Below are positions 3,503 through 28,517 of a DNA stretch of 64,000 nucleotides, in pieces. The notes beneath the pieces are model-generated. The model made no database searches. It had not been told where the DNA came from and worked only from the letters and a program-made list of their open reading frames with translations. The position numbers were made by a program, and so were the translations under genes. Source of the DNA: Sphyrna mokarran (taxonomy: Eukaryota). Position 1 is the first letter of the stretch. Every line of letters begins with the position of its first letter. The stretch lies in the NCBI GenBank assembly GCA_024679065.1, contig JAGIQG010000077.1, positions 1-64,000 of the forward strand. Reading direction: 5' to 3'.

Positions 3503-3832
3503 CTTTCCGTTTTTCTGTTGTTTTGACCTTCCACACACTCTTGGTCCAGTATTTCCCTGGAGTCCCCAGTTGAACAATACAACTACAGACAGCGCCGCTT
3601 CTCCAAGTGGCCCCCGACACCATGACATGACTTCTGATGCTGTAGGCCCCGTCCTCCTCCATTGTCCGTGGATCACTCGATCCTTCTGTGACCAGACCAG
3701 AAATATTCCAGAAAATAGAAATCTGGTTAGAAGAAACTCCACTGACCAAACACACTAAGGGCACGGTATCATTCACATCCAGCTCAGCCGGCGGGACAAA
3801 TATCTGCACTGCCGTCTTGTTGGTAAAACTGC
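3503..3832 (-). CDS. Gene A exon 3: C1-set Ig domain
   Basis: Acceptor tctgtccag|, donor G|gtgag, phase 1-1. VQIFVPP...VPLVCLVSGV...IFWN...DGAYSIRSHVMVSGATWRSGAVCSCIV matches the C1 pattern (LVCLV, W, DGxYS, W-x-S-G). Confidence 0.93.
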
Positions 3833-3922
3833 CTGGACAGAAATCGGGATATAGTTAACGATTTATTAACACCAAATGGCATTGCTGTGCGCAATCTTAA
3901 TTCATTTCACTTGCTCTCTTAC

Positions 3923-4255
3923 CTCCAACCAGTAGTGTGGGTCCATTCTGGAGCGGTGCATAGCTATACTCATCAGCACAGTAGTAGGAACCCGAGTCAT
4001 TCGCCTGGACATTGCGAATTTCCAGTATCAATTCATGTTTGCCATTGCCTTTTTTAGAAACAAACTTACAATCGTCCCCCTGACAGGGTGGGATATCGAT
4101 TAGTTTCGGCACTTCACCAACATTTTGTTTGTACCAGAAATAGCTGGCCACGAATACCACCTGGGATGTCTGGTGACAGGTTAAATCCACCGTCTGGCCG
4201 ACTTCGGCTGTCACTGTGAAGGGCCTTTGAGATAGAGAGGACTCGGAATCTGTAA
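3923..4255 (-). CDS. Gene A exon 2: V-set domain with germline-fused J-like G strand
   Basis: Acceptor tctctag|, donor G|gtaag, phase 1-1. Translation VTDSESSLSQRPFTVTAEVGQTVDLTC...YFWYKQ...LILEIRNVQANDSGSYYCADEYSYAPLQNGPTLLVG has the B-strand Cys, WYxQ, DSGxYYC and a J-like GPTLLV. An alternative acceptor 6 nt downstream is possible. Confidence 0.93.
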
Positions 4256-4454
4256 CTAGAGAGATTATTCACACATTTTCACATATTTCAACATAGAAAG
4301 TTGCCGTTTCAAAAAAAAAATAAGAATAATCTCATTATTATCTTCAGTTATATTTCTGGAGATTATATCCCAAATTGTGTTTTCTACGCTTGAAAGGAGG
4401 AAGCTGAAAATCCCTTGTACCAATCACTAAGTCGTATTTGCAATGTTGTAGCCG

Positions 4455-4780
4455 GGCGGCATGTGTTTGGCACCATGGGCTCACAGAGCTGAGGACCCGG
4501 GTTCAATTCCTGGCTTGGGTCAGTGTCTGTGCACGTTCTCCCCGTGCCTGCATGGGCATTTCCTCCCACTCATCGGAAGATGTGCTGTTTCGGTGCATTG
4601 GCCGTGCTAAATTCTGCCTCTGTGTCCCCGCACTGGCGCAGGAGTGTGGCGACTGGGGTCTTTTCACGGTAACTTCATTGCAGTGTCGGTGCAAAAAGTA
4701 AAGATTACTCGTCACAGGTAAGGCTCACATTAACACTGGAATGTGAAATTCCCCTGGAAGCCGATTTGTGACACTAATGC
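4455..4780 (+). mobile_element. tRNA-derived SINE (HE1-like) in the gene A leader-V intron
   Basis: gggttcaattcc B-box and gcacgttctcccc...attggccgtgctaaatt core. Confidence 0.65.
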
Positions 4781-4836
4781 TTAAAAAATTAACTTGGCTG
4801 CTGCCATTTTCAATGTCTCACCTGGCAAATACTCAC

Positions 4837-4891
4837 CATGACCCCACAGCGCATGGAGAATGAATATCAGGGATAAAGATTGCTGGGGCAT
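4837..4891 (-). CDS. Gene A exon 1: signal-peptide exon (MPQQSLSLIFILHALWGH-) of a germline-joined VJ-C1 Ig-superfamily receptor
   Basis: ATG at 4891 in good context (AAGATGC), hydrophobic core, 55 nt ending in G|gtgagt (phase 1), in frame with the V exon. Confidence 0.85.
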
Positions 4892-5339
4892 CTTGCACAG
4901 ATGAGCAATATCTCCCTGTTTCCACACTCACACCAGTTTGTTTTTGCTGAGAGGTCCGAGGACTGACCTGGTCTCAGACCCAGTTAATTGTTGCACTTTA
5001 TGATTGGGTGGAAACTGTGACAAGAGACAATGGAAAGTGTGACATAGTACTGATGAAATTGCGCTGCTGAATGTCACGTGCATTTGTCGCACTGTGATCG
5101 CCGCCGACGTGTCACAGGGTCAAGTGATAGAATATTCACACAGAGCTTGACTGGTTTGACACACCGAGGGGACCACAAGATAATCATTGTGCGGATATGT
5201 GCAGAAAATGTGAGTTACAGTTTAATTTATTCTCAGGATATGCAATACGGCGGTTTCGTTGAGAAGGATGAGGGCGGTGATCTCACTGTAACTTAGAGAA
5301 CACTGAAAGGCCTTGTAGAGTGGGCATGGAGAAGATCTT

Positions 5340-5680
5340 CAGAATAGAATAGAATAGAATAATTACAGTGCAGAAGGAGGCCATTTTAGCACTTAGAGAT
5401 TCCACTGACAATGACCCCAGACAGGCGATATATCCGTAACGTATCTTACATTCTGAGCACCCCCCCCACACCCACCTCCCAACACTAAGGGATAATTTAG
5501 CATGGCCAATCCAACAAACCCATACATCTTTGGGTTGTGGGAGGAAGCTGGAGTGTCGACAGGAATCCCACGCCGACACTGGGAGATTGTGCAAACTCAA
5601 CACAGTCACGCAAGGCCAGAATTGAACCCGAGCCCCTAAGAGCTCTGAAATAGTAGTGCTAACCGCTTTGCCACCGTCCT
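5340..5680 (-). mobile_element. HE1-type tRNA-derived SINE
   Basis: A/B-box head at 5620-5675, shared core, CR1-like tail (ttcta)n. Confidence 0.75.
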
Positions 5681-8439
5681 TTAGTTGGAGAGACTCTGCA
5701 CAGACTCAGAGTAAAGGGTTGACCCTTTCGCACCGAGAAGAGAAGGGATTCCTTCAGCCAGAGAGACGTTAATATGTGGAATTCATTGCCACAAAAGGCT
5801 GTGAAGGCCAAGTCATTGAGCATAGTTAAAACAGAGATAGATAGGCTCCTGGTTGGCAAGTGGTTCAAAGGTTTCGAGGATAAGGCGGGAGAATGGGGTT
5901 GAGAAGCATATCAGCCATGATCGAATGCCGCAGCAGACTCGATGGGCAGAATGGCGTAATTATGGTCCTTTATCCTTATGGGCGCATTGCTCGGCGACAT
6001 GTATGATTGATTGGTGGCATTGAGTTGCCATTGTAGAATGTATTGTCTATATTATAGAAGTGTACAACACTTCGATGTTGTGCTGAGCATGACGGAAGTT
6101 AAACTTATCCCTTTTGCCTGACCTTGATCCATATCCCTCTGTATCTTGCATATTCATGTCCTTATCTAAAAGCCCCTGAAACGCCCCTCTCACGCCTGCC
6201 TCCAACACCACCTCAGACAGCGAGTTCCAGACTACTACCACTCTATGTAAACAATTTGCTCCTCACATTTCCTTTGAACTTTCCCCTCCGATTTAAGTAC
6301 ATGCCCCTTAGCAACGGGGAGGAATTTGAAATTTCACAGTAAGTTTTTTGCAGTGTTAATATGAGCCTTACTTCTGACTAATACATTGCATTTAAACTTG
6401 AAAAGGTTGACCCATATCCTCACCTTTGATCCCTGGTTCGTGACACAATCTGCTTGCACAGAAACGGGGAAAGATTTGGATGGACTGTGTGTGAATAAAT
6501 TTGAAACGCAGTGGAAGCTTTAGTGAGTTATTTCGATGCTCCCCTGATGTAGAGAACACACTGTCCGTTGATTGCCAGAATACTTCACTTGTGAATTAAT
6601 TTGCCTATCTTTGACTTATCTTCCAAATTGGGCGTTGAATAAACACACGGACATGATGTCACATTCACCAGGATAGTATACATAAGATCATTCACGCAAT
6701 AGGCTAGTTTTTGTTCATTGTATCAAAACTGGGAGCAGGCAGTCTGCTGTTTGCGGTTTCAAGTTGAGAGGTCCTCCCCAGGCAGTTCTGTGCGTGCAGT
6801 GCCTCAACTTTGAAAACAAGCAATTCACTGACAGCTTCTGGCTTGAAAACATTTCCATCAGTGATGTAAAGTGGATAGAATCTTGGCTCGCGACTTGCAC
6901 CCCTCGATACCGCAGAACATGCAAGCCGTCCTTGTGTGGGTAGAAGCTAGGAGCCGTGGACAGAGACAATGCGCCTCTTTGCTGTCACACCAATCCCTCT
7001 GTTATAGGGTCGACTGACTCGCTTCATTTTCATTCTAGGTCATGCACTTATGGAGGACAGTTCAGGCACTCAGCTACCAGTAGTCGGAAGCCAAACTACA
7101 AATTCATTCTACAAATCTTTTCATATTACAGGAGAAGCGATGGCTGAGTGGCATTATCGCTGGACTATTAATCCAAATACTCAACTGCTGTTCTGCCGAC
7201 CCTGGTTCTAATCCTGCCACAATAGCTGGAGGAATGTGAATTCAGTAGAAGATATGTGGAATTCAAAGTCTACTGATGACCACATAACTATTTTCTATGA
7301 TCTGGGAACCCCCCCCCCCCCCAAACTTCCTCAATACCCTTTAACGAAGGGAATCTGCTCCCCTTATCTATTCTGGCCTACACGTGACTCCGGATACACA
7401 GCAATGTTGTTGACTCTTAACTGCCCCCGGGCAACTAGGGATAGGCAAAAATTGCTGGACAGCCAGCGATGTCCAAGCGATGTGATCCTTTTGTGGCAAC
7501 GCGCGTTTGCCCTTATTGTCCTGACGATTATGTGATATTGTTTCCTGAGGGTTCTTAGAGAATTTACACGTTTCACCGAATTCACTGCAGAACTAGGTCA
7601 TGTTTCCAATGAGAGAATCCAATGAACATCTAATTTGCCCCATTAACAGTTCCAAATGTTTTGTCTGTTAGAATGATGCATAATGACCCTTTGCAATAAC
7701 TGCCACGTTGATCAGGATTCTACTCTTTATTCTCATTGGGATTTGAAGTCTTAAGACAGCTGATAAGACGAGGGCTGATGTTTAGCAGGCACATTTTAAA
7801 ATTAATGGTTTGTTTTAATTTGCATTGGCTTGAAACATCACTTGTAGTTCGTTGGTTTTCCCCTACCCCAACCGGAAATCTGAGTGAACAGCTCCCTCAA
7901 GGCAAAATGAGTGAATGATCCATTTAATAATATTGACCGGTAACTTCATCACTCTTTTGGTCGAGAACTTCACCTTTTTGGTTTCCAGATCATCAGTAAT
8001 CTGTCCTGGCCCCTTCATGCCGAAGATATGCTTAGGGAAACTCACCAATGCCTCTAGTTTCTCAGATGGCTAAGGAAATTCGACGTTTCTGCGGATAAAA
8101 CACATCCTTTCCGGATGTCACACAAGTTGGTACGGCTCCTGCTCTGACCAACACTGCAAAAACTACAAATGGTTGTGAATGAGTTCATCTGTATTTCACT
8201 GTTGTCAAATTATTTAATCAAATCTGATGAACTCATTTATCTGTCATATTGGCACTTCCTGGAATAGGCTGGGGTGCATTATCCACTGGACACTTCTAAT
8301 TGAAGTTTGTTACAAGAGATTCACGCTTGCATTTTTCACTGATGTGCTGGGTTTCCCGTCATTGAGCTTAGAAACATGATTGGAGCTTCCTAATCTGTTA
8401 AATGTCGCAGTTAATACCTCCATTTGCTACTGAATGGAG

Positions 8440-9580
8440 CATAGAACATAGACCATAGAACACTACAGCACAAACAGGCCCTTCGCCCCACAACTTGTGC
8501 CGAACACATCAAAACCTACCCAGCCATAGACCTATCTATAACCCCCAATCCCATTGGATCCCATATACTCATCCAGAAGTCTTTTAAAATACCCCAGCGA
8601 GTTCGCCTCGACCACCACCGACGGCAGCCGATTCCATTCACTCACCACCCTCTGAGTGAAAAACTTTCCCCTAGCATCCCCTCTGTACTTGCTTCCCTGC
8701 ACCTTAAATCTGTGCCCTCTCGTCGCGACCATTTCAGCCCTGGGAAATAGTCTCTGAGAGTCCACACTATCTATTCCTCTCAACATCTTGTAAACCTCTT
8801 TCAGGTCGCCTCTCAATCTTCGTCTCTCCAGGGAGAACAGTCCCAGCTCCCTCAACCTGTCTTCATAAGGCATGCCTCCCAACCCAGGCAACATCCTTGT
8901 AAATCTCCTCTGCACCCTTTCAATAGCTTCCACGTCCTTTCTATAGTGAGGCGACCAGAACTGCGCACAGTACTCCAAGTGTGGTCTGACAAGGGTCCTA
9001 TAAAGCTGCAGCATTACCTCCTGACTCCTGAACTCAATCCCTCGATGAATGAAGGCCAGTACACCGTAAGCTTTCTTAACCACATCCTCCACCTGGGAGG
9101 CCGATTTGAGAGTCTTATGGACCCGGACCCCAAGATCCCTCTGCTCTTCCACACAGCTAAGACTCCTACCTTTGATAGTGTACACATTCATCCCGTTGGA
9201 TCTGCCAAAATGGACCATAACACATTTATCCGCGTTGAAGTCCATCTGCCAATTCTTCGCCCAGTCTTGCATCCTGTCGATGTCCTGCTGCAACTTCTGA
9301 CATCCCTCCAGACCATCCACAACACCACCGACCTTCGTGTCATCGGCGAACTTACTACCCATCCCTCCACTTCCTCATCCAGGTCATTTATGAAAATGAC
9401 AAACAGCAAGGGTCCTAGAACAGATCCTTGGGGTACTCCACTGGTGACTGACCTCCATGCAGAAAAAGAACCATCCACAACCACCCTCTGCCTTCTGCAG
9501 GCAAGCCAGTTCCGGATCCACAAGGCCAAAGCCCCTTGGATCCCATGGCCTCTCACCTTCTCAAGAAGTCTTGCATGTGG
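8440..9580 (-). mobile_element. CR1 LINE, 5'-truncated, near-identical to 891-1782, one frameshift near 9360
   Basis: [18 protein letters not shown], same 3' UTR. Confidence 0.95.
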
Positions 9581-11924
9581 AGCAGGACAGCAGTTGACAG
9601 TGATTTGCTTTAGTTCTGTCTATCGCATGCTGCATTCGCCGTTTGTCACGCAAGTCTTCGTGTGCTGTACCTTAACGACGTTTCATTCTTTTTTAAGGTT
9701 CTGTCCCAGTCAGTACATTGTTCAAGTGAATTTCAAGATGGAGGAATATTGATGCATGAGCTGAGGCGGACAGTATGAGGCAAATAGCAGAACGTTTTCT
9801 TGTCCATGGATGTGCTGTTGGCAAGTAACGTGCTCCAGAGATGTTGGGAACTCAGTGCATAAATCTGCGATTCCATCCGTGTTCAGCCTTTGTAGTACTG
9901 TAGCGCCACCTCAGGGATGGTGTTGGTAATGTCTAAGATTTCCTCGACCGGATCTGATTTCCTGAGTTTGCTGATTTCCTGAGCATGCCGATTTACAGCT
10001 TTTTGTTTTCCTATTCGGGGGTAGGGGGTCGGCCGAGATGGCTGGGGGAGGGGTAGTAGGGAGGGGTCAGGAAAGGTATAGGTACAGAATGTATTTCCTC
10101 TAAACTTAGAAGAGAACACTCCCCCTCCCCCAGATGTTATTAAGGTGGACTTTGAAGTGTGAACTTTGCATTTTTTTCTGCTGTTGTTTTTGGTGTCTCT
10201 ATCAATATGGGGCGATTTTTCCTGATCTATTCTTATTGCACCATTTTTATATCATGAGGTGACAGAAAAACTATCTCAAAGTTCCGGAATCATAAGTGGC
10301 CAATGTCAGACTGGGCGCAGAGTGCCCATTTCATACCCTAAATGTTTCTTTATGGCGATCGATCACGGTTTCGGAGTCTGTATAACCGGGAGATAGTTTT
10401 GGACTGTAACTACAATTACTTCTGTTATCAATTGAAATTTAATTCCACATTTTCCGAATTCTATTGTATATCCCAAACGGATTTGTCTGGATATTTCGAA
10501 GGATGTGACCACCGGTGGACTGTGTCCCTGTTTTTCAATTCAAGTGGTGTATCTTCTTTTAAATGACATTTTGATTTACATATTAATGTCATGGTTTTTC
10601 ATGTGAAATATTTCATGACCAATATTCATCCCAGATTGCCTACAATCCACGTGCCAGTTTCATGTTCTATGCACAACAAATGAACTGATATGAGGCTGAT
10701 TTGACACCTACATATATACATCAGCGGGGGTGAATAAGGAGACACTTGAAACGTTTTTCTTCATTGAACAAAGACCGATATGAAGACAAGAAGGAGGCTA
10801 GAAGTTAAGTGGATTATCTAAGATTCCCAAACGGATCCACTGCAGTCACGGACAGGAACTAAACGGTCAATCTAAATATCAAAGAATCTCAACAAACAAC
10901 TAAACAATGTTAAGATAATGAGTTTTTATTAGTGCTATCGATAATAATAATTACAGAAAGACATGATTGATTTCAATTTTTTTGGTCCTTTCCACGGACG
11001 GGCGAGTTTGAGAATCCCTGGGTCTTTACATGAACACTGGATGGCTTGTGGTAATATTACGGGATTTATTTTATAGATTAATTTGCTATAGGATCTGCAC
11101 CCTAAAGTGCTTGTGTTTCCCTCGCGCCTGCTGTCCTTGCCCTTCGTGTTAATCAAAGGACAAGGGTAACAGAGGGATGAAAATTGCTTTCAATGGGGAA
11201 AATTGCTGCAGTGCATCTTGCCCGTGGTACTCACAGCTGTCACTGTGCATTGGTGGAAGAGGGAGTGAATGTGAATTGTGTGTGAAACAATCAAGTGGGG
11301 CTGCTTTACTCACCTGACCAATCCTTTACATTGCCCATGTCTTGTTGCATGCTGGGACGGAAGGTCTCAGTAACGGAGGAGTTTGGAACAGAACATAGTG
11401 TATCGATATTTAGCCTGTAGGTGACAATTCGAAGTGGAACAATCTTCGGTTGATCTGGACTCAAGAGTTAAAAGTACAGACAGAGAGATGGTTGCCTTTG
11501 GATTTGGGTTACGATTCAATAGCTCCAAATGGAATCCTGCCAAGGTCAGTTCAATCAAGTTGGACAGGTATTGGAGAAGGGCGGTATTGTCAACCCTGCT
11601 GCTGGCTACATGTGGAGAATGATGTGGAAGGAGAGATTATTGGAGTCACTATCCCAAATGACATGTGAGGCCTTGAAATGGACCGTGGCCTGTGAAGGCA
11701 ACTGATTGGAGGGAGGCAGAAATGGAATTATGGTGAAGCTGAGTGTGGAAATGAAATCTTACAGCATATTGGAGGACGTTGGCGAGGAAAGGGATGTTGG
11801 AAATGGGATGTGAACTGGAAAGGACAAAGGTTTTAAGAGTCTAATTCTGGATTGAGGTGAGAACAGCGTCTTTGCAGTGAGGGTTAATTACCAAGGAGAC
11901 GGATCTACTTACAATATAGGCTCA

Positions 11925-12260
11925 GTAAGAAGTCTCACAACACCAGATTAAAGTCAAACAAGTTTATTTGGTAGCACAAGCTACGAGCTTCAGGAGCACT
12001 GCCCCTTCATCAGGTAAATGGGAGTTCCGTTCACAATCAGGGCTTATAAAGACACAAACTCAATTTACAAAGTAATGGTTGGATTGCGAGACTTTATTTA
12101 TAATCAAGTATCGAAGGCGCAGGCAATGTGAGTGGAGAGAGGTTTAAGCGCAGGTTAAAAAGGTGTATATTGTCTCCAGCCAGGACAGTTGGTGAGATTT
12201 TGCAAGCCCAGGCAATTCGTAGGGAGTTACAGATGGTGCATACTCAATCTCACATGAAAC
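11925..12260 (-). mobile_element. Penelope-like element fragment with a degenerate minimal hammerhead core
   Basis: Minus strand CTGATGA-aggggcagtgctcc-TGAA-gctc at 11984-12013; homologous to 48280-48585. Confidence 0.55.
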
Positions 12261-12344
12261 TCTTCCCACTAACAGATCCACTGGAACAAAACTTGTTGTT
12301 GTGCCTGTTGTTCTCCCGCAATCGAGCATAAAACGTGCCAGTCC

Positions 12345-14040
12345 AGTACAAAGAACAACAACAAAGAACAACACAGCACCGGAAACTTCGGCCCAACGAG
12401 CGCGCGCCGCCGTCCTAACGTCTTAATGACATATAGGGACCAATTTGTTACCCAATCAGCTTAAGAGAACATTTTTGGGATGTGGGACGAAACCGGAGCA
12501 CCCGGAGAAAACCCACGCAATCACGGGGAGAACGCGCAAATTCCCACAGACACAGGCCCAAATCCATGTCTCTGCACAGCAACAGCGATAGTCCCTGAGC
12601 TGTCATGGTGCCCATCAGATGGTCCAGTTTAAGCATACACTACCGACGTGAAGCACTAGGCCACTCCTGAAGCAACATCCAAGAGCAGCTCTCGCATGAC
12701 CTGCCGCATGCATGCCCTTGTTGGTCAACAAGGTGAATCGAACATCCTGTGGAAACAAATATGATATTTAAACAGTCCTACTATATCCCTCTATCTGCAG
12801 ACCGTTCATGTGGCTGTCCAAGAGACCCTTAAACAACCCTAGCGTGCCTGCTCCCACCACCTTACTCGGTAGTGCATTCCACACCCCCACTACTCTTTGT
12901 GTGAAAAACTGCCCTCTAATATTCGTCTTATACATAGCCCCCCTCACCCTAAGGCCGTGACCCCTCGTTCTATCCTTTTCTAATGGTGGAAAAAGCTTAC
13001 CACCATTTACTCTATCTATACCCCTCATAATCTTATATACCTCTAATAGATCCCCTCTCAGCCGACGTCTTTCAAGGGAAAACAACCCCAGTGCGTTCAA
13101 TCTTTCCTCGTAAGACAGCCTTTCCATACCAGGCAGCATGCTGGTAAATCTCCTCTGCACTCTCTCCAGGGCCTCCACATTTTTCCGGTAGTACGGCGAC
13201 CAGAACTGGATGCAGTACTCCAAGTGAGGCCTAACCAACGTTCTATACAATTGCAACATTAGACTTCTACTCTTGTATTCTATACCTCTTCCTATGAAGG
13301 CTAACATACCATACGCTTTCTTTATCACATTCTCCACTTGTACTGACACCTTCAGAGACTTGTGAACCTGCACCCCCAGGTCTCTCTGCATCTCTATACT
13401 CCGGATAGTTTTACCTTTTATCCTATAACTCCCCGCTACATTTTTCCGGCCAAAATGCATCACCTCGCATGTATCCGGATTAAATTCCACTTGCCATCTA
13501 TCTGCCCAATCTACCAGCCTATCTATTGTCCTGTTGGATTGGCTGGCACTGCTCCTCATTCCTGCCAATCCAAGCATCTTAGTGTCATCAGCAAATTTGC
13601 TGATCACAGCACCTACCCCCTCTTCCAAGTCATTTATATAAACCACAAATAGAAGAGATCCTAGTACTGAGCCCTGTGGCACGCCGCTAGTGACACACCT
13701 CCAGTTGGAAAAAGAGCCTTCCACTACTACCCGCTGTCTCCTCCTCCCAAGCCAGTTCTCAACCCATCAACATACCTGGCCCTGTATCCCATGCGCCTTC
13801 ACCTTTTCTATCAGCCTACCATGAGGAAACTTGTCAAACGCCTTACTGAAATCCATGTAGACGACATCAACGTCTTGTCCTTCACCAACTGTTTTTGTCA
13901 CCTCTTCAAAAAATTCCACTAGATTTGTAAGGCACGACCTCCCCTTAACGAAGCCATGCTGCGTATCCCTGATCAGATCGCAGCGCTCCAGATGTTCATA
14001 CATCCTGTCCCTGAGGATCCTCTCCATTAGCTTACCAGTC
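12345..14040 (-). mobile_element. CR1 LINE (third subfamily, long 3' UTR, TTCTTTG-type tail)
   Basis: ORFs 13767-14027 and 12768-13724 ([30 protein letters not shown]). Confidence 0.9.
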
Positions 14041-15249
14041 TCCTAAGCATGCCGCCAGTTGCTTTGTCATACAATCATTGAAGTCATGAACGGTACGTTC
14101 CACTAGCCTATGGTTGAAAAGTGATCAGGTGCTGCTAAAATATGTTGGTAACCTTTGGAGAGCATGCATTGTTAGAAATTAGCGCCAGTAAAGTCCTCGC
14201 CGTTTGTAGGAAAACAGTCATCCTGGTATTCCTTCTACACTGGTACCTTGGTATGCCATAATATCTAGATCAATGTCTGAAAAGTAGTGTAGCCCTCTCG
14301 GTGCATCTGCAATCCATTTAAGTAGAAGTGCACCACGATTAAACCCGAGGAACTCATTAATGCCCATAGGCACTCATGGCCCTTCCAAGGCACTCCCAGA
14401 TGTGTAGGAAAGCTAAGGGAGGGCGTATTTGATTTTCCTGGCACCGATCACATTGGTTCACCAACTGTGATAACAACATCTGGAAGATATCTCGGACGAA
14501 GCTCCAAACCAGCGCGTTTTTTCAAATAATCTCAGGGAGACCCTTATTTCGTTGACTTGGAGGCCGTGCGGAGGGCGGAAAAATAATCGGACAGCCGAGG
14601 AGTGACCCCGTCCTCCGCATGAAGTAAGCTTCCTTAATGAGGTATGTTTTCATGTTTCCAAGGATGGTCCTTCGGATCCGCCATGCAGGATCACTGACTA
14701 ATTTTAGGTCAGATAGAATCATTAGAGACGTTAATTTGCACTCTGGCCACTGGAAAGGTCCCCAAAATATTGAGAGCCTTCATTATCCCCTTTTAATGCT
14801 GGTAAGTGAGCCAGGCTTGTGGCAACCAGAGATGTTGCAATGCATCAACATTAACTATCTGGATTCCGGATCGCTGTTCCTGAAGATATTTGCAGGCTGA
14901 CAATAAAGTCGAGCTATATCGGGACAGAGACTTTGGGGAGAAAGGGAGGTGGGACTGGTGGTAGGTGGAGAAAGAATGTGGAATTGCCTTATCCACTTGT
15001 AGAGGCTTAATAGGTATTACAAAGAACAAAGAACAACACCACACGGAAAACACCCAACAAGCCCGCACCACCATTTTAACATTGCGAGTGCACACGTCTA
15101 CCTAAACCTTTGTCTACACCTATTGGGGAATATTTAGGGAAGACTAATTTAGGGACAATTTGATAACACCAATTGTGTTTATGTTTGGTAGCTAATTAAA
15201 TAAACAATCTGAAACTGTTGATGGAAGTTCTGGACACCAAATTCAGCCT

Positions 15250-16989: not shown

Positions 16990-17043
16990 CTTTAGCAATG
17001 TACCTTCTGTTGGATACTGTCAGAATAACACAACCAAGTATAC

Positions 17044-17077
<34 letters not shown>

Positions 17078-17587: not shown

Positions 17588-17631
<44 letters not shown>

Positions 17632-17712
17632 AACACTCTTCCCACTACTGGATGATGTCAGGAACGGACACTTACAAATCCACAATCTCTGCTGGGACTG
17701 TCAGAATTTCAT
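16990..17712. repeat. Compound minisatellite: conserved ~33-bp core separated by variable CA/CT-rich spacers (about 7 units)
   Basis: Variants of caatctaccctttgctggataatgtcagaatcac at about 16996, 17137, 17272, 17431, 17558, 17640 and 17683. Confidence 0.8.
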
Positions 17713-18389
17713 TGGACGCGACATTACCGGAACCAACTTTGTTTAAGATTATTTCGTTGTGTGTTGAGTGTATCACACGCGTTTCACATCACATTGAAAG
17801 TAAGATTTTAGTCTCCACTCGCAGTGGTTCCATTCTTATTGAATACGTTTGTGATTCGCCTCTATTTTATTAGCAGCGTTTTCAATACAGCAACACCCAC
17901 CTCTCAATAAAGAGTCCGGTGCTGCAACCCCGCCTTAAACCTGTAAAACATTTCATATTAGGGAAATATATAAATATAGAAATTAGATTCCTATCTGTTT
18001 ATTCATTGGGTATCAAACACGTATCTGCTTTCACGAGGGATGATGATTAATAAGAAAATAATTAAATTTGGATTAAATAAGATTACTTTTCAAATTGAAA
18101 TATCTAGTCAGTAAACAGAACTATTTGGCTGTTAGACATGACCAATCAATCCANNNNNNNNNNNNNNNNNNNNNNNNNNNNNNNNNNNNNNNNNNNNNNN
18201 NNNNNNNNNNNNNNNNNNNNNNNNNNNNNNNNNNNNNNNNNNNNNNNNNNNNNNNNNNNNNNNNNNNNNNNNNNNNNNNNNNNNNNNNNNNNNNCTGACA
18301 AGAAAATATTAGACTAGAGAGGCATCGGTGTCAGCACAGACTTGGTGGACCAAAGGTTTTGTTTCTGTATTGTAATATTCTTTGTTCTT

Positions 18390-19147
18390 TGCTCACACTC
18401 ATGCTCACAAATACACTGATACACACATATTCACACACACACACACACACACACACACTTCTGTATCCTGTAAGTCTCTGCCGTCCCATGTTGAAAGGGA
18501 AATGTTCCCAATTCCTCACAGTTCATTGCTTCAAAAAAAATGGAAAACGGTTTTCTGGCTCCTCTAGCGGTGAGAGGATTTGCTCTGTATGGGTATTACT
18601 GAAAAAAAAAACTTCTTGCGGGTTCGGAGGGTCAAGCTAACTTCTTGTTGTTTTGAATAACAGCGTCTCCTAATGACGCACACAAACACACACATACAAA
18701 TGCATACACCGACACATGCTCTCTCTCTCTCAGTGACACACACACACACACACATACACAGTCTCTCTCTCACACACACACAGCCACAGACACTCACAAA
18801 CACTTGCACATACACTTATACATTCACACACACGCATTCATACANNNNNNNNNNNNNNNNNNNNNNNNNNNNNNNNNNNNNNNNNNNNNNNNNNNNNNNN
18901 NNNNNNNNNNNNNNNNNNNNNNNNNNNNNNNNNNNNNNNNNNNNNNNNNNNNNNNNNNNNNNNNNNNNNNNNNNNNNNNNNNNNNNNNNNNNNNNNNNAA
19001 AATATTAGACGAGAGAGGAATCAGTGTCAGCACAGACTTGGTGGGCCGAAGGGTTTGTTTCTGTATTGTAATATTCTTTGTTCTTTGTTCACACTCATGC
19101 ACATAAATACACTGATACACACATGTACACACACACACACACAAAGA

Positions 19148-19180
<33 letters not shown>

Positions 19181-19480
19181 TGTTAAACATATATAAACGC
19201 ATACATACACACTCATGCACTTAAACACATTCTCAAACGCACTGACATTCTGACGTGCACACACACACACTCATACATGTATACACACTCATGCCCACAC
19301 TTATAGACACTCAGACAAAAAACAGACATACACTCGCGCACATACACACAGATAAATTCATACACTGACACACACTCACACTTACATATTAAGCTGATTC
19401 ACTGACACACACACTTACTCACACTTCCTCACATATAAACACACTCTCTCATACACTGATATACACTCGAACACTTACAC
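18390..19480. repeat. Degenerate (CA)n/(CT)n tract spanning the gap at 18845-18998
   Basis: Read directly from the sequence. Confidence 0.9.
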
Positions 19481-21459
19481 TTGATGTCTGCGAAATGTCA
19501 CATAGAATCCCTCAGTTTATTAATTGAAGCATTTAGTCTTAAATCAATCAAGTTTGGATAAGCACTTATGAAACATTGCTTGCATATATTTTCCACGTTT
19601 CCTTCAGTTCCAAACACCAAAGTTCTGGAATGATATTAGCATTTTCGGAAAACTCCTGAACATATTAAAGGAGAGCAATGCCAGTCAAAGTAGAGCGTTT
19701 GGGGAAGTCGATATTGAGTTGACATTGCTCTCCAGAGAAACTTGGGTGGAAATATGAAAGAGATGTGTAACACCATGGAAGCGGTGTTTGAGGGAGGGAA
19801 TATTTGATTGTAAAATGCTCGACATAAGGATACCGAGCGGCTAACATTTTAATGTAAGTTTTAAGGATGAAATGGGCATTTAAATAATGTAGTAATGATA
19901 GTTTCAAAATGAATGGCTGATCACCCTGCTAGAATTAAATTGTATAACTCAAGGACTGATTGTGTCAGTAAGTTAGCTAAAACAAATATAACCGGAATGA
20001 TAGGCAGTGGAACAGCTTGATCTTGAGTTTGGACACAGCTCGGCACAACATCGAATGGCCGAAGGGCCTGTACTGTGCTGTACTGTTTTATGGTCTACGT
20101 AACTTAAACTTGGGATGATTATGAAATCGGGCATTGATTAAAGGGACAAATAATGTAATTTTGTATTGGGTACAGAGACTCCAACCTGGGAATTCTGCCG
20201 GAATATCGATTTCAGATAATGTTCTTTCAGGATTAACTGCCAATATTCAATTGGATGTCCAAAACTAGGGTAGATCCAGTTAAGTTTGGGGCACATTTAA
20301 TCTTGCAGATTGCATATTCATGCAGCAGAAATCTCAAACCAGTTGCTCACATTCCTGTTCTGCCCTTAATACCATCTCCAACGCAAACAAACACACCCTA
20401 AAAACGTTCCTGTGAATTAGCTGAAGAGCCGCCGGAAACATATTTGTTCCAAATCCTTATAGAAACCGAATTACACAGGTAACATTTGGTATTGAAGACC
20501 TTCTTCTATATTTAGTTAACTCGGATATTGATACATTTTTAACTATTTCTTGCACAATTACAGTAGTAAATGCAGAATAGAATTTTAAAACCCGCTATCA
20601 GAAATTAGAAGCATTGAGAGGTGAAATTGCATTGCAGGCGATATTCCATCTTATAATGGTGGACATTAAGAGAAAGTTCATTTCCGCTTTGGTCGCCATC
20701 ATAATATTGAGCCCCCAGTCCGTCCGAATTCGTACCGGCCGCACTTTCGGAATTCTCCTTGCAAAAATAAGAATGTTTCAACGACACTATAAAACCCGGA
20801 AACACACGGTGAGTTCTCTGTGTCCCTCTCTTTTCTCGCCAGTTAAGGTTTTGGATCCTCGTTAAAGGCCAGGCGAGCGTAAAGTGTCTGTGGATGAAAA
20901 GTGATCTGTTAGCGTGATACACACCATTATTATAGTGACAGGTGAGACCATTGAGTCCCCCCACTCCTCCGCGTCCCCTCCACTGCATTCAATCGGTTCA
21001 TGGCTGCAAGGTAACTCAACTCACAGTCACCCACTAATATTGAATAATCCTTAATCCCTCCCTAATGTAAATCTAACTGTCGCATCTCCAGAGTTCCAAT
21101 TGCCCAATGCTCTATGTAGCTTTTTAGTGACCAGAATTCCGCCTCGCGTTCTGTGAAGATTTATTATTGTCACATATATGAGTATGCATTAATATGTAAT
21201 GATTCTTGCCCAGTGTACAGACAAAGTTTATCGTGTGTGGAGAATGAAAGGAGAAGGTGCAGATTATAGTGTTACAGTGATAGAGAGGCTTGAAGAGAAA
21301 GTTCAACGTAATATGAGACAGGTCAATTCTAATGTCTGATGGCAGCAGGGAAGGAGCTATCCTTGTGTGACCTCAGAATTATATCTCTTTTTCCCCGAAG
21401 GAAGAAGGTGGAGAAATAAAGCGTATCCGGGATCCTTGTTAATGGTGGCTGTTTATATA

Positions 21460-21960
21460 GAAACATAGAAGATTGCAGCAGGGAGAGGTCATTTGGCCCT
21501 TTGAGTCTGCTCCAGCATTCATTATGATCATGATTGATCGTCCAGCCCAATCGTCTAATCCTACTTTCTCCCCATAAACTTCGCTCCCAAGTGCTATATC
21601 CAGTCGCCTGTTGAACATATTGAATGTTTTGGCATCAACTACTTCCTGTGATAATGAATTCCACAGGCTCACCGAGTGAAGAAATGTCTCCTCACCTCCG
21701 TCCTAAATGGTCTATCCCAAAACCTCAAACTGTGGCCCCTGATTCTGGACTCCCTCCACTATCGGGAACATCCTTCCTGTATTTACTCTGTTTAGCCCTG
21801 ATAGAATTTTAGAAGTCTCTATGAAATCACCCCCCATTCGTCTGAACTGCAGTGAAAACAACTTCAAACTAGTCAATCTCTCCTCATACATGAATCCCGC
21901 CATTCCTGGAGTGAGCCTGGTAAACCTTCGCTGCACTCCCTCCAGAGCCAGAATTTCATT
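21460..21960 (-). mobile_element. Old CR1 3' fragment
   Basis: LEGVQRRFTRLTPGMAG..YEERL; WNSLSQEVVDAK. Confidence 0.85.
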
Positions 21961-22339
21961 CCAAAGTGAGTGCATTTGGTATGTCTCCTGGTCTGCCCAA
22001 GACTACAAGAATTGGAAAGTCCCATTATTCAAATCAGCCTCCCCTCCATTGAGTCTGTCTACACGTCCTGTTGCCTCGGGGAAAGGCAGCCAACATAATT
22101 AAGGACCTCGCCCACCCTCCCACACGCACCCCGGACATTCTGTCTTCCACCTTCTTCCATTGGGAAAAAGATACAAAAGTCTGAGTTCAAGTACCAACCC
22201 ACTCAAGAACAGGTTCTTCTGTGCTGCTGTCAAACTTCTGAAGGGATCTACCTCGCACAAAGTTGATCTTTCTATCTTTCTCTAAATTCTGGGTATGATT
22301 GTAGCACTATATTCTCCACTTTCTCCTTTACTTCTCAAT

Positions 22340-22690
22340 GAACGGTATGCTTTCTCTATGTAGTGCGCAAGAAGCAATACTTTTCACTGTATCCCATACA
22401 TGTGACAGTAATAATCCAAACCTATGTACTCAATGAACGGTATGCTTTGTTTTGCGAGCAAGAAACAATACTTTTCACTGTACTCTGATGCATGTGAGAA
22501 TAATAAACCAAACCTATGTACTCAATGAACGGTATGCTTTGTCTGTATAGCGCGCAACAACAACGCTTTTCACTGAATCCCAAAACATGTGCCAATAATA
22601 AATCTAATCTATGTACTCTGTGAATGGTATGCTTTGGCTGTGTAGTGTGCAAAAAACAATACTTTTCACTGTCTCCCAACGCACGTGCGG
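22340..22690 (+). repeat. Tandem ~95-bp copies of a LINE 3' end (about 4 copies)
   Basis: Unit ctatgtactc..gaacggtatgctttg..caagaaacaatacttttcactgt..catgtgacaataataaa. Confidence 0.85.
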
Positions 22691-22832
22691 TTCCTGATAG
22701 AAAGGGGGATTTAAACTGAAATTTAAAATGGATTAATTTTACACCGAACCCGCTCAGAATTATCAATAAGTCGGTGATAAATGTGTGGATTGAGAGCGCC
22801 GCGGAGTAACAGATTCCCCCCAAAATGTCTAC

Positions 22833-22922
22833 CTCTCTGCCGGTTCCTGCAGATCCTTCTTCCGGCCACAAGGGCCAATCCCAGAAGGAGAAGTGCTGCG
22901 ACCGACAAACCCCCGGAAAACA
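22833..22922 (-). CDS. Gene B transmembrane exon (VFSGGLSVAALLLLGLALVAGRRICRNRQR)
   Basis: Acceptor gatttag|, donor G|gtaga, 90 nt, phase 1-1. About 20 hydrophobic residues followed by a basic stop-transfer stretch; the first such exon downstream of the B C1 exon. Confidence 0.75.
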
Positions 22923-23259
22923 CTAAATCACAGGTGAGCGAGAACGGAGAATCTGCAAAAAAAAACTAAACTTTCAGTCAGCAGAAATCAAGTGTGGAAA
23001 TAATTGAACAAACAAGGATGTTGTTCAATTTAACTGTCCAATTTAACCGAAAAATGAGAAAAAAATTGCACACTTTCCCTTCATGTAATAGAGTTGCATT
23101 TTTACAATAGAACACGAGGCGCGGCAGAAAGAGATAGTGACAGAAAGACTGAACACTTTTTGAATAGGGCACACAGAGAGATGGAGGAAGAGAGTGGAAG
23201 ATTCAGGCAGAGAATAATCATGTCACCCTATAATGCAGAAGAAGACCATTCGGGCCATC

Positions 23260-26200
23260 GAGTCATGGCTGAGGGTCTGGAGCAGGGGGCAGGGCTTCAA
23301 GTTCATAGATCATTAGGACCTCTTTTGGGGCAGGTGTGACTTGTACAGTAAGGACGGGTGGCACTTGAACCCTAGAGGGACTAATATCTTGGCAGGTAGA
23401 CTAGCTAGGGCTACTGGGGGATCTTTAAACTAGAAAAGCTGGGGGGGAGGGGTGGGAATACCGATGGGACGGTGAATAAGGAGGTTCGTTCCCAGGTAGG
23501 GAAGGACTGTAGGCACTCTGAAAGGGGGGTTAGGCAAGTGGTGGAAAAGTGAAATATCCTGACTGAGGGGCTGAGGTGTGTCTATTTTAACGCCAGGAGT
23601 AAATAAGGTAGATGAGCTCAGGGCGTGGATTGCTGCTTGGGAATGTGATGTGGTGGCCATTACAGAGACTTGGTTGTCTCAGGGACAGGACTGGGTACTC
23701 CAGGTGCCAGGATTCAGGTGCTTCAGGAGGGACAGGGTTAGGGGCAAAAGAGGAGGTGGTGTGGCACTGTTGATCATGGACAATGTCATGGCTGTAGAGA
23801 AGGTGGAAGACGTGGAGGGATTGTCTACGGAGTCTCTGTGGGTGTAAGTTAGGAACAGCAAAGGCTCGATAACTTTGCTGGGTGTATTCTATAGGACGCC
23901 CAATAGCGACAGGGAACTTGAGGTGCAGATAGGGAAACAGATCCTAGACAGATGTAGAAATAATAGGGTTGTCGCGATGGGAGATTTCAATTTCCCAAAC
24001 ATCGACTGGAATATCCCAAGGGGTTTGGATGGTGTGGAGTTTGTAAGGTGTGTTCAGGAAGGTTTCCTGACACAGTACGTGGAAAAGCCTACGAGAGGAG
24101 AGTCTGTACTTGACCTGGTGCTAGCTAATGAGTCCGGGGAGGTGTCGGATCTCACGGTAGGTGAGCATCTTGGGAATGGAGATCATAATTCTGTCTCTTT
24201 CACGATAGCGATGGAAAGAGATAGGATCAGGCAGGCTAGGAAGGTGTATGTCTGGAGTAAGGGGAAATATGACAACATTATGCACTTTGGCAGGAACAAT
24301 AAATGTGTAGAGTATAGGGCTAATGGTAGGGCTCTTAATAGTGTTGAGGAACAGAAGGATCTTGGTGTATGTGTCAATAGATCCCTGAAAGTAGGCAGTC
24401 AAGTGGATAAAGTTGTTAAGAAGGCATATGGAGTCTTAGCTTTTATTGGTAGGGGGATTGAATTTAGGAGCCGCAGCATCATGTTGCAACTGTACAAAAC
24501 TCTAGTGCGGCCGCACTTGGAGTATTGTGTGCAGTTCTGGTCCCCACATTATAAGAAAGATGTGGAGGCATTGGAGAGGGTACAGAGGAGGTTTACCAGG
24601 ATGTTGCCTGGTATGGAGGGCAGGTCCTATGAAGAGAGGTTGAAGGATTTGAGGTTGTTTTCGTTAGAAAGGAGGCGGCTAAGAGGGGATCTTATTGAAG
24701 CATATAAGATGATTAGAGGTTTAGATAGGGTGGACAGTGATAGCCTTTTTCCTAGGATGGAGAAAGCTAGCACGAGGGGACACAGCTTTAAATTAAGGGG
24801 TATGAGTTATAGGACGGATATCAGAGGTAGGTTCTTTACTCAAAGAGTGATTAGGGAGTGGAATGCCCTGCCTGCAGCTGTTGTAGATGCGCCAAGTTTG
24901 GTGGCGTTTAAGAGGTTAATTGATAAGTATATGGAAGAGAAGGGAATGGTTTAGTTTGGAGGGGCATTGCTTTTTATTTTGGTCGGCACAACATCGAAGG
25001 CCGAAGGGCCTGTTCTGTGCTGTAATGTTCTATGTTCTATGTTCTATTAGGCAGGTAATTGGACGCATAAACTGGAAGGAGGTGTTCTTGGGGAAGATTA
25101 CAGAAGGAAAGTGGCGGTTTTTCAAGGAATGTTTGTCTGGGGCACTGCAAGACAACGTCCCGAGGAGTCAAGGAGGTTCTGGTAGGACGCGAGAACCGTG
25201 GTGCACGAAGGTAGTGGTGAACCGAGTTAGGAAGGAAAAAAAGGTATATAAAAGATTCAGAGAGCTAGGGGATGTTAGGGATCCAGAGGAGTATAAGGTG
25301 TGTAGAAGGGAACTTAAAAAGGAAATTGGGAGAGCCAGAAGGGGTCATGAGAAGGCCTTGGCAGGTAAAATTAAGGAGAATCCCAAGGCCTTCTACAAAT
25401 ATGTGAAAAGTAAAAGGATGAGAAGAGAAGGGATAGGGCCTACAAATGGTGAAGGGAGAAAAGTCTGTGTGAATCCGGAAGAAATGGCAGAAGTATAACG
25501 AATATTTTGCCTCGGTATTCACAGTGGAAAATGAACTGGGAGATTGCACTGCAGGTTTGAGGCAAATGGAAAAGATTGAGCATGTGGATATTAGGAAAGA
25601 GGATGTGTTAGACCTGTTAAATTGTACCAAGATAGACAAGTCGCCAAGACTGGATGGGATGTATCCCAGGTTATTGTGGGAGGTGAGGGAAGTGGTTGCA
25701 GAGCCCCAGGCGATGATCTTTGCGTCGTCCATGGAAACGGGAGAGATTCTGGAGGATTGGAGGATTGCGGATGTGGTTCCTATCTTTAAGAAAGGGAACA
25801 GGGATAGTCCAGGAAATTACCGACCGGTGAGTTTGACTTCAGTGGTTGGTAAGCTGATGGAAAGGCTTCTGACGGATAAGATATATGAACATTTGGAGAA
25901 GTTTGGACTGATAGGAAATAGTCAGCATGGTTTTGTCAAGGGCAGGTCATGCCTTACAAGCCTAGTTGAGTTCTTCGAAAGTGTGACTGAACACATTGAC
26001 GAAGGAAGGGCGGTGGACGTAGTGTACATGGACTTTAGTAAGGCGTTTGATAAGGTCCCACATGCAAGGTTTCTGGAGAAGGTGAGAGGGCATGGGATCC
26101 AAGGGGCTTTGGCCTTGTGGATCCAGAACTGGCTTGCCTGCAGAAGGGAGAGAGTGGTTGTGGATGGGTCTTGTTCTGCATGGAGGTCGGTAACCAGTGG

Positions 26201-27180
26201 AGTGTCCCAGGGATCTGTTCTGAGACCCCTGCTGTTTGTTATTTTCATAAATGACCTGGATGAGGAAGTAGAGGGATAGGTTAGCAAGTTCGCCGACGAT
26301 ACAAAGATCGGTGGTGTTGTGGATGGTCTGGAGGGATGGCAAAAGTTGCAGCGGGACATAGACAGGATGCAAGACTGGGCGGAGAAGTGGCAGATGGACT
26401 TCAACGCAGATAAACGTGTATTGGTCCATTTTGGCAGGAATAATGGGATGAATGAGTACAATATAAGGGGTAGGAGTCTTAGCTGTGTTGTAGAGCAGAA
26501 GGATCTCGGCGTCCGGGTCCAGAAGACCCTTAAGTTGGCCTCGCAGGTGGAGGAAGTGGTCAAGAAGGCGTATGGTGTACTGACCTTCATTAATCGAGGA
26601 ATAAAGTTCAGGAGTCAGGAGGTAATGATGCAGCTCTATAAGATTGTTGTCAGACCCCAGTTGGAGTATTGTGCGCAGTTCTGGTCGCCTCATTATAGGA
26701 AGGATGTAGAGGCTATTGAGAGAGTTCGGAGGAGATTTACAAGGATGCTACCTGGATTATGAAGATAGGTTGAGGGAGCTGGGACTCTTCTCACTGGAGC
26801 GACGCAGGTTGAGAGGCGACCTGATAGAGGTTTATAAAATGTTGAGAGGGATAGATAGGGTGGACTCTCAGAGACTATTTCCCCGAGCTGAAATGGTCAC
26901 TACGAGAGGACACAGATTTAAGGTGCAGGGAAGCAAATACAAAGGAGATGTCAGGGGTAGGTTTTTCACTCAGAGGGTGGTGAGTGAATGGAACCGACTG
27001 TCGTCGGAGGTTATTGAGGCAAACTCACTGGGGTCTTTAAAGAGACTTCTGGATGAGTATATGGAAACGAATAGGATAGGGGGTTATAGATAGGCCTGTA
27101 GATTGGTCGTTGTGATAAGCGCAACTCATGGGCCGAAGAGCCTGTTTGTGCTGTATTGTTCTATGTTCTTTTTTCTATGA
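23260..27180 (+). mobile_element. Near-full-length CR1 (ORF1 SGNH-esterase C-terminus, APE endonuclease, RT), mutated, host of a nested CR1
   Basis: ORF1 end DLYSKDGWHLNPRGTNILA; APE motifs DVVAITETW and MGDFNFPNIDW; RT motifs [20 protein letters not shown] and FADDTK; several stops and frameshifts. Confidence 0.95.
24281..25045 (+). mobile_element. Younger CR1 (EEKGMV subfamily) nested in the CR1 at 23260-27180
   Basis: The host frame KYDNI|RQVIGRINW is split; atta is duplicated at 24277-24280 and 25046-25049; the insert has its own TTCTATG tail. Confidence 0.92.
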
Positions 27181-27229
27181 GTCTGCGCCACCCTATCCCC
27201 GTCACCTCACGTATTTACTCTGCTAATTC

Positions 27230-27660
27230 TTCTGACTCTCGGCTCAATTGAGCATGGTCAATCCACTTAACCCGCACATCTTTGGACACTAAAGGGCAAT
27301 TTGTCATAGCTAATCTAACTAACCTACATATCTCCGATATTAAGGAACATTTTCCCATGGCTTATCCACCTAACTTACACATTCTTTGACATTAAGGGCA
27401 ATTTACAATGGTTGATCCACCTAGCCTTCAGATCCTTTGACACTAAGGAGCAATTTACCATAGCTGGTCCGCTTAGCCGACACATCCTTTGGCAATAAGG
27501 GACACTTTAGTATTGCCAATCCACCTAACCCGCATATCTTTGGACACAAAGGTGCAATTTAGCAATGGTCAATCCACTTACCCCCCACATCTTTGGACAC
27601 TAAGGGGCAATTTAGCATGGCCAATCCACCTAACCTGCACATCTTTGGAACTTGTGGGAA
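27230..27660. repeat. ~52-bp minisatellite derived from the SINE core (about 8 copies)
   Basis: Unit gacactaaggggcaatttagcatggccaatccacctaacctgcacatctttg; also at 32490-32720, 37985-38340, 41150-41520 and 44510-45145. Confidence 0.9.
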
Positions 27661-28205
27661 AACAGGAGCACCCGCGGGAAGGCCGATGTAATTGAATGGG
27701 GGTGAATTACAGGGAGGCGAAGGGATGAACAAATGGTTTACTGCTGTGCTGAGATAGAGACCAATATTGGGGATATAATCACACATTTCAATTTTAAACA
27801 CTGACAGATTGGTCCCTGACCTTCAGATGCGTCATGATGTTTTAGCCAGATACTAAAAGGGGAAGAGGAGAAGAGGCCATTCGGCCTATCTCATCTATTC
27901 TGCCATCCAACATCACCATCCCTCACCATGTTTACAAACTTCACTTCTCCGTCCTTTCTCTTACTCATTAATCTGTCCGTTCTCACAAATGTGCTTCGGT
28001 GATTGAACATCCACGGTTCGTAACGGTAGCGAAGAAGAGGCAAAATATCAGAAAATCGAACTGGGAGGATTATGATAGGACAGTTCTGATTTAGACATTC
28101 ATGGATGCCCGCAGAGACATTTGTAATTTACAAAGTTAGGCTGCTTTTAGTAAAGTGCCCCGTTATTATTAAATGGATTGAAAAATAGTCATTGTGAATA
28201 GCTAC

Positions 28206-28517
28206 CTTTCTGAGATGAGAAACTGTCACTGAGAATACTGTCACTGGAGTTGACCCGAACAGTGCAGGTACAGCGAGCACCGCTTCTCCAAGTTTCCGCC
28301 GAGAGACTGATGTAACTCCTGACGGTGTAGGTCCCGTCTGGCTCCAGTGTCCCCGAATCGGTCCGTCCCTCGGTATCCCGCCCCAAAACATTCCAGCGGA
28401 CAGGAGAAGAATCGGGAGACACCCCTCTGACCAGGCACATCAAAGGGACCCTTTCCATGGCAGGAATCTCATCCAGCGGTGGGGTGAGGAGGAATATGGA
28501 GGGAGAACCCGCTAAAT
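28206..28517 (-). CDS. Gene B exon 3: C1-set Ig domain
   Basis: Acceptor tttgccag|, donor G|gtagc, 312 nt, phase 1-1. PSIFLLTPP...VPLMCLVRGV...RWN...DGTYTVRSYISLSAETWRSGARCTCTV. Confidence 0.93.

Follow-up and report, generated by a model that had tools for sequence, protein, structure and literature searches.

What Fu et al. described in 2019 as PRARP, and Ohta et al. in the same year as VJC1, is reportedly a pair of non-rearranging genes with V and J already joined, whose products consist of a V domain, a C1 domain, a transmembrane (TM) segment and a tail with a sequence like the immunoreceptor tyrosine-based inhibitory motif (ITIM). These products are said to form disulfide-linked dimers and to have orthologues in bony fish, amphibians and reptiles. 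PRARP is treated as a joined-VJ gene in excerpts of two sources (PMC10751288; PMC11599192) and as linked to the major histocompatibility complex (MHC) in an excerpt of one of them (PMC10751288). The elasmobranch molecules UrIg and UrIg2 also have a non-rearranging VJ exon and form disulfide-linked dimers, UrIg being secreted with three C1 domains and UrIg2 having nine, according to an excerpt of PMC12227049. The two genes considered here, A and B, are read on the minus strand of the first 64,000 nucleotides of Sphyrna mokarran contig JAGIQG010000077.1 (GenBank assembly GCA_024679065.1); this whole stretch is hereafter the window, and its contig is C1404 in genome comparisons. Each gene comprises a leader exon, a V exon that includes a J-like strand, and a single C1 exon. 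Both C1 domains carry an extra cysteine two residues before the canonical cysteine of the F strand, and by sequence comparison this C-x-C motif marks a family of germline-joined VJ–C1 receptors that ranges from sharks to reptiles.

The C-x-C motif and its distribution

The C1 exon of gene A (positions 3503–3832) encodes three cysteines, namely that of the B strand, the extra one at F-2 (TGT codon at 3585–3587, in the Tyr/Phe slot) and the canonical one of the F strand two residues on (3579–3581). The C1 exon of gene B (28206–28517) also encodes three, with the extra TGT codon at 28270–28272 and the canonical F-strand Cys at 28264–28266. Both exons are bounded by AG/GT at the coordinates given in an earlier, sequence-only reading of this DNA. 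The motif strings are TWRSGAVCSCIVQL in gene A and TWRSGARCTCTVRV in gene B, each giving C-x-C-x-V and lacking a His at the fourth residue past the canonical Cys, as that reading had claimed. The immunoglobulin (Ig) C1-set consensus Y/F-x-C-x-V-x-H, which is typical rather than defining, is therefore missed at two points, the Y/F slot and the His. Strand labels here are IMGT-style, and the patterns used for recombination signal sequences (RSS) and ITIMs are the generally known consensus forms. The missing His is less special, being absent also from IgG CH2 and from one shark light-chain-type C domain of this genome. Four light-chain-type C exons at G000:C838:36026221-36085811 were seen to lack the F–G His and to keep Tyr at the slot.

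Both domains score above the Pfam C1-set cut-off of 21 (41.3 bits for gene A and 38.2 bits for gene B). In alignments to solved antibody chains, the first Cys falls on the Phe/Tyr of the IgG CH3/CH2 F strand (for gene A, on the Phe of CH3 ‘NVFSCSV’) and the second on the canonical Cys. The C1 structure predicted by AlphaFold for gene A (predicted local distance difference test, pLDDT, 83.6) has a helix at residues 73–77 that carries a Trp, and an F strand at residues 82–88 that starts with the extra Cys. Its best structural matches are Ig constant domains, with Z about 13.9 to IgG CH2/CH3 (root-mean-square deviation 2.9, 103 aligned). By alignment, then, the first Cys of C-x-C takes the place that Tyr/Phe has in a normal YxC motif, a change of one transition for Tyr (TAY to TGY), while the second likely makes the ordinary B–F disulfide. 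An excerpt of PMC11926128 names YxCxV as a C1 hallmark.

The ungapped VPL...CxV cores of the two C1 domains, WRSGAVCSCIVQL and WRSGARCTCTVRV, are identical at 33 of 64 positions (52%), exactly the count reported before. The accompanying claim that the V domains are far more divergent holds when core is compared with core, the V cores sharing 23 of 70 residues (33%), and holds only weakly over whole exons (33/108, or 31%, for V and 38/102, or 37%, for C).

In the same genome, 71 distinct C1 sequences were obtained from 85 family loci, and the 64 with at least 83 residues were aligned. The B-strand Cys and the C-strand Trp are present in all 64 paralogues and the canonical F Cys in 63/63, while the extra Cys is found in 59/64, the remainder having Tyr (three), Leu (one) or Gly (one). 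A non-family C1 set was fetched from 55 loci of this genome and gave 46 distinct aligned sequences, read here as light-chain-, heavy-chain-, T-cell receptor (TCR)- or MHC-like. Their slot holds Tyr in 41, Phe in 3, Val in 2 and Cys in none, and 44 have the His. The contrast of 59/64 with 0/46 has a Fisher p of 1e-25, a value overstated since the paralogues are related. Among 37 database proteins from 12 other sharks, the 36 that span the F strand all have the extra Cys (36/36), 35/36 have the canonical Cys, and none has the His (0/36).

A profile search by shared words reached sharks only, and a HMMER search was required to reach bony vertebrates. Run against 1.84 billion representatives, the HMMER profile listed 150 proteins, of which 58 new ones with V–C1 architecture were taken as family; multi-domain Ig chains, V-only rows, a Fab construct, a light chain, a TCR-like chain and a frameshifted model were left out. 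These 58 representatives, from rays to reptiles, have the extra Cys in 38/58, a share that leans upward because the search profile included this Cys, and the His in 0/58. As background, 197 C1 domains of 37 mostly Ig heavy-chain proteins on the same list have Cys at the slot in 2, Y/F in 157 and the His in 140, so that exceptions to Y/F-x-C-x-V-x-H are common among true C1 domains. One of the two Cys cases is a frog Ig heavy-chain-like domain, and slot Cys can therefore arise independently. The proposal that the motif is a family signature was thus borne out more widely than it had been made: the motif is not common in ordinary C domains (0/46 in the same genome, 2/197 among Ig-type domains), it is conserved in other sharks (36/36 proteins, 12 species), and it extends to reptiles.

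Of the 58 representatives, 29 were named, and these come from rays, sawfish, skate, chimaera, sturgeons, paddlefish, gar, eel, coelacanth, lungfish, caecilian, newt, Xenopus, turtles, alligator and lizards, with no bird protein among them. In a quick maximum-likelihood tree of V plus C1, built on 72 rows, the 64 family rows stand apart from the 8 Ig/TCR rows with a Shimodaira–Hasegawa-like approximate likelihood ratio test (SH-aLRT) value of 99, two of the outgroup branches being long. One outgroup row, P0146, was TCR-beta- or light-chain-like in a PDB search. Within the family, clades A (SH-aLRT 93) and B (96) are separate and each spans the jawed vertebrates; a third clade has a value of 86. 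The extra Cys occurs in all three. Since C1 domains in general have Tyr/Phe at the slot, whereas these clades have Cys in common, the C-x-C motif is a derived mark.

Full-length members have the order leader, VJ, C1, stalk Cys, TM and tail. In 43 representatives with a TM segment, a Cys lies in the stalk or the first TM turn in 40 and an ITIM-like pattern is present in 28, and every TM exon sampled in this genome has the stalk Cys. Because architecture, gene pairing and taxa match those of PRARP/VJC1, the family probably is PRARP/VJC1. V and J are joined in one germline exon without RSS, the products are V–C1–TM proteins with an ITIM-like tail, the two types form a linked pair, and orthologues occur in bony fish, amphibians and reptiles. 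In Mobula birostris, A- and B-type proteins have consecutive accessions. Clade A includes one Xenopus laevis protein, which bears a name other than PRARP/VJC1. A clade B protein of Rhinatrema bivittatum (P0092, XP_029437407.1) carries the annotation ‘programmed cell death protein 1’, which is probably mistaken. A literature search returned no description of the C-x-C motif or of a shark cluster of this family, and either may already appear in figures or supplements of Fu 2019, Ohta 2019, Flajnik 2023, and Dornburg and Yoder 2022.

Role of the extra cysteine

The extra Cys is quite probably a buried, unpaired residue of the domain core. The Tyr-to-Cys change would have arisen once, before clades A, B and the third split, and the Cys would have been retained because it can be tolerated in the packing beneath the EF helix. 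A disulfide between chains, if there is one, would be made by the stalk Cys, with A and B pairing like light-chain or TCR chains to give an inhibitory receptor.

Several lines of evidence bear on this reading. In the 58 representatives, the hydrophobic fraction along the F strand from the extra Cys on is 0.95, 0.09, 0.98 (canonical Cys), 0.36, 0.62 and 0.05, the fifth position being Val or Ala in 52/58, and this alternation indicates that the extra Cys faces inward. Where it is replaced (20 representatives), the residue is Tyr (6), Val (4), Phe (3), Leu (2) or Ile (2) in 17/20, and His, Lys or Asp once each. Among the 38 representatives that carry the extra Cys, the aligned domain has exactly three cysteines in 32 and five in 3, and no fourth Cys column is widely shared among the 64 paralogues. 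Constraint was compared on a tree of the 61 open-frame paralogues, three of the 64 having been dropped for stops or truncation. The extra Cys shows 10 codon changes, 5 of which alter the amino acid; amino-acid changes number zero for the B-strand Cys (1 codon change), the C-strand Trp and the canonical F Cys (7 silent changes). The contrast has a Fisher p of 0.036, and the median column has 6 changes. Copies with intact V exons but another slot residue include L010 (Tyr), which also has TM and tail exons, and L041 (Leu). Tetrapod A chains keep the extra Cys in 0/7 cases and tetrapod B chains in 8/10; in one caecilian, the slot holds Val in the A chain and Cys in the B chain. The residue is best read as buried and unpaired because it faces inward, has core-like replacements, lacks a partner, is under weaker constraint, is lost independently in the two chains, and leaves the stalk Cys available for any inter-chain bond.

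Other points weigh against this reading. Burial, although most likely, is drawn from strand periodicity, alignment and the general C1 fold. Retention in 38/58 representatives across all jawed-vertebrate groups, with Tyr one transition away and tolerated, is more than a purely neutral residue would show, even if the share is raised by the search profile. The Mustelus gene model P0026 has the extra Cys and a Tyr at the canonical position, which fits a substitute disulfide. Some of the five amino-acid changes fall in likely pseudogenes, namely L047 with a frameshifted V and the truncated L080. Change of the EF-helix Trp to Cys, which occurred at least twice, could give a second disulfide locally. 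The V plus C1 tree, moreover, is a quick one with two long outgroup branches. Two further candidates were set aside: a vicinal C-x-C bond would be under strain within a beta strand and would come at the cost of the invariant B–F pair, and metal binding lacks further conserved ligands in the 64-paralogue alignment.

Three mechanisms had been offered in the sequence-only reading, a buried free thiol, an alternative disulfide and an inter-chain bond, of which the free thiol fits best. A rival reading is a thiol–disulfide switch, in which the extra Cys exchanges with the B–F disulfide (B-Cys to F-Cys against B-Cys to F-2 Cys) and so regulates folding, trafficking or signalling. Three cysteines per domain are indeed kept over the whole jawed-vertebrate range, and P0026 carries the extra Cys without the canonical one. 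However, the canonical F Cys is present in 63/63 paralogues and 57/58 representatives (the exception being a one-residue shift), so the extra Cys is no stand-in for it, and the extra Cys has been lost repeatedly, including from all seven tetrapod A chains. From position i-2, moreover, the F strand would have to slip by two residues to reach the B-strand Cys. The precedents point both ways. Excerpts of the respective sources describe a bond-switching three-Cys Ig domain, KIR2DL4 D0 (10.64898/2026.02.18.706601), and alternative bonds within the CysB/F/G triad of titin, yet the buried titin triad is inert while folded (PMC5766482). Such a switch is improbable here. The broader proposition, that a thiol switch or latent second disulfide operates in the constant domain of an ancient two-chain and non-rearranging inhibitory receptor, amplified in this shark to about 70 genes, whose germline A × B repertoire was built by duplication and not by RAG, would be a long shot.

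A second disulfide limited to certain lineages would form where the EF-helix Trp, six residues upstream, became a Cys that bonds to the extra Cys. There are at least two origins of this change, each in sequences that have the extra Cys: in an A subfamily (L060, L061, L063 and L064) and in the B gene of a separate scaffold, C894 (L069), which has it in common with the database orthologue P0046 (69% identical in V). A Cys at the EF helix is absent from the 197 background domains, and an excerpt of 10.1101/2024.06.10.598201 has the F-strand Tyr slot interacting with the EF loop. Two events are nevertheless too few, Trp-to-Arg and Trp-to-Leu also occur, and both window genes keep the Trp, so the proposal does not apply to them. 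Within the L060 subfamily and the C894 B lineages a second disulfide is possible, if doubtful, from the paired residues; for the motif in general it is very unlikely. The alternative disulfide thus finds little support overall, the canonical pair never changing in open copies, and survives as a candidate in two small lineages with a fourth Cys.

An inter-chain bond, in which the extra Cys joins A to B or forms homodimers, would suit the occurrence of this Cys at the same position in both chain types and the alternation of A and B genes in the cluster described below. The slot faces inward, though, loss is uncoupled between the chains (7/7 tetrapod A chains without it, 8/10 tetrapod B chains with it), and a separate conserved stalk Cys is available; C1 domains also pair through the ABED sheet, and not the F strand, in an excerpt of PMC11926128. 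This mechanism is most unlikely, and that part of the earlier proposal is not supported. Finally, the motif might be a local artefact, shared because A and B were recently duplicated in this genome or exchanged sequence by gene conversion, given the 14-base identical stretch over the TWRSG codons of the two genes and a cluster rich in near-identical copies. The same motif in rays, sturgeon, paddlefish, gar, eel, coelacanth, lungfish, amphibians and turtles rules this out for practical purposes, and the split of A and B into separate clades, both running through the jawed vertebrates, also speaks against it.

The cluster and the genes of the window

Scaffold C1027 holds, at 609431–2848618 (0.6–2.85 Mb; 2.2 Mb), at least 71 family C1 exons in mixed orientation, 34 of type A and 37 of type B, counts that include pseudogenes and are lower bounds. 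Types A and B mostly alternate, 53 of 70 neighbours being of differing type, a figure reached by 1 in 100,000 shuffles. By eye, the V exons of this cluster differ most in the loop regions. A divergent, head-to-head A/B pair lies at C894:2365048-2386281, on a separate scaffold of 26.5 Mb; its B gene resembles ray proteins more than it does the C1027 cluster. The pair is possibly the ancestral locus. The window contig resembles the end of C1027 at 2.70–2.85 Mb, with identical exons and a different gene order; two pairs of C1 exons on C1027 match the pair in the window exactly and have the same 24,703-base spacing. The repeat may be an alternative haplotype, a copy-number variant or an assembly duplication. 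Two of 14 sampled B paralogues, L191 (C1027:794676) and L194 (C1027:1703873), have an Arg in the membrane span, which would be compatible with possible activating-type chains or with drift.

All 53 MHC class I matches are on scaffold C1548, where no family copy is listed; C1027 and C1404 are short scaffolds of unplaced position. A B-type protein of Pristis pectinata (P0045, XP_051901910.1) is consecutive with XP_051901911, the sawfish IgL sigma-2 of an excerpt of PMC12227049, and the adjacent accessions suggest that the family adjoins a light-chain locus in that species. In S. mokarran, light-chain C exons were not listed on C1027 or C894 (150 candidates scored for each), and none was found in C1027:400-600 kb.

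In gene A, the C1 exon is preceded by a V exon at 3923–4255, whose J-like end is germline-joined and degenerate, and by a leader exon at 4837–4891. Its TM and tail exons lie beyond the contig start, and an identical C1 copy on C1027 (L093) has both. The V domains of type A have an additional cysteine pair, C-x4-C, in the C′–C′′ region (4080–4120 in the window), and a degenerate J motif without FGxG; both are conserved across sharks.

Gene B has a leader exon at 30477–30519, a V exon at 28608–28946 with a germline-joined FGxG J motif, and a stalk and TM exon at 22833–22952 with the conserved stalk Cys and a membrane span without charged residues. Its middle cytoplasmic exon starts at 22686–22693, where similarity to the paralogues ends after about 7 bases; the remainder was not found past this point, unrelated and repeat-like sequence interrupting it, whereas 13 of 14 sampled B paralogues have the exon. 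The last exon (20842–20887), with the ITIM-like TLYARL, is intact. If the broken middle exon is skipped, the last exon is likely out of the Tyr-motif frame, and skipping of the middle exon in a Mustelus isoform shifts the frame likewise. For this reason the window copy of gene B may be without an inhibitory tail. No RNA support is listed for the exons of gene B.

A third gene, of type A (L106), contributes its TM and tail exons at 57737–60177 on the minus strand, comprising a TM exon with a stalk Cys (60076–60177) and a last tail exon with PLYASL (57737–57814); its C1 exon is at C1404:66049, outside the window. No RSS-like site was found near gene A (3000–5500) or gene B (27700–31000), and the single one in the 64 kb window is far from any V exon. 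The intergenic DNA consists mostly of long open frames of reverse transcriptase, for example at 719–1693, 23848–24951, 35760–37550 and 42075–43499, presumably of the CR1/LINE type (LINE, long interspersed nuclear element).

Pairing, significance and comparison with known systems

That A and B form a heterodimer with inhibitory signalling is suggested by the pairing of the genes, by the stalk Cys and by the motifs of the tail. A predicted complex of A and B, for which the manta-ray proteins P0051 and P0182 (V–C1–stalk) served as stand-ins and which was modelled without alignments, scores 0.41, the best of three controls being 0.00, which lends the heterodimer weak support; the runs agree in at least 66% of contacts and the partner pLDDT is at least 73. 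The score mark is reached by 51/78 solved and 2/108 mismatched pairs, while it is reached with a score of 0.60 or below by no more than 5/78 solved pairs and by all 4 passing mismatches. The modelled score may be explained by likeness to Fab and TCR pairs.

The C-x-C motif is genuine as well as diagnostic, and leads to an old and poorly annotated family of receptors that has expanded greatly in this shark. It offers a cheap diagnostic for proteins that databases label kappa, lambda, heavy-chain, TCR or even PD-1-like. Judged from the tree, the family is a sister lineage, not a frozen ancestor, of the antigen receptors. A and B group with one another rather than with the Ig/TCR rows tested, and a heterodimer of the two would therefore have evolved apart from heavy/light or alpha/beta pairing. 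A germline A × B repertoire, if true, would be a third antigen-receptor-like system, diversified by duplication instead of RAG rearrangement. With its large cluster of alternating genes, this shark offers a setting in which the ligand and the pairing rules of the family can be tested. Unless it proves to have a redox role, the extra Cys as such is probably a curiosity of structure.

Other known receptors resemble the family in part. SIRPs have two C1 domains. They have the same V domain with a J-like motif, C1, TM and ITIM, and SIRP clusters are among the look-alikes found by features, where they rank below V–C1 clusters of about 290 amino acids; similar V–C1 clusters of about this length were found in the ESM Atlas. 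KIR2DL4 D0 and the titin triad, as excerpted, have the same odd third Cys beside a canonical pair; theirs is on another strand, whereas here it shares a strand with the canonical Cys, from which it is two residues away, and is often replaced. UrIg and UrIg2 have the same germline VJ exon followed by C1. A VJ exon with at least three C1 domains was not found here, a single C1 exon being followed by the stalk/TM exon, and the present genes differ further in their inhibitory-type tail, their multiple copies and their presence in bony vertebrates. Ig light chains and TCR chains have the same C1 fold, B–F Cys pair, C-strand Trp, EF helix, VJ–C1 layout and Cys after C. Unlike them, this family has Cys for Tyr/Phe, no His, a germline J without RSS in place of split V and J segments with RSS, a Tyr-motif tail and an uncharged TM segment. 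PRARP/VJC1 reportedly shares the VJ-joined gene pair, the V–C1–TM architecture, the ITIM-like tail and the taxa; what differs here is that the pair is amplified, with at least 34 A and at least 37 B C1 exons on one scaffold, that it extends to sharks, rays and chimaera, and that a third clade accompanies A and B.

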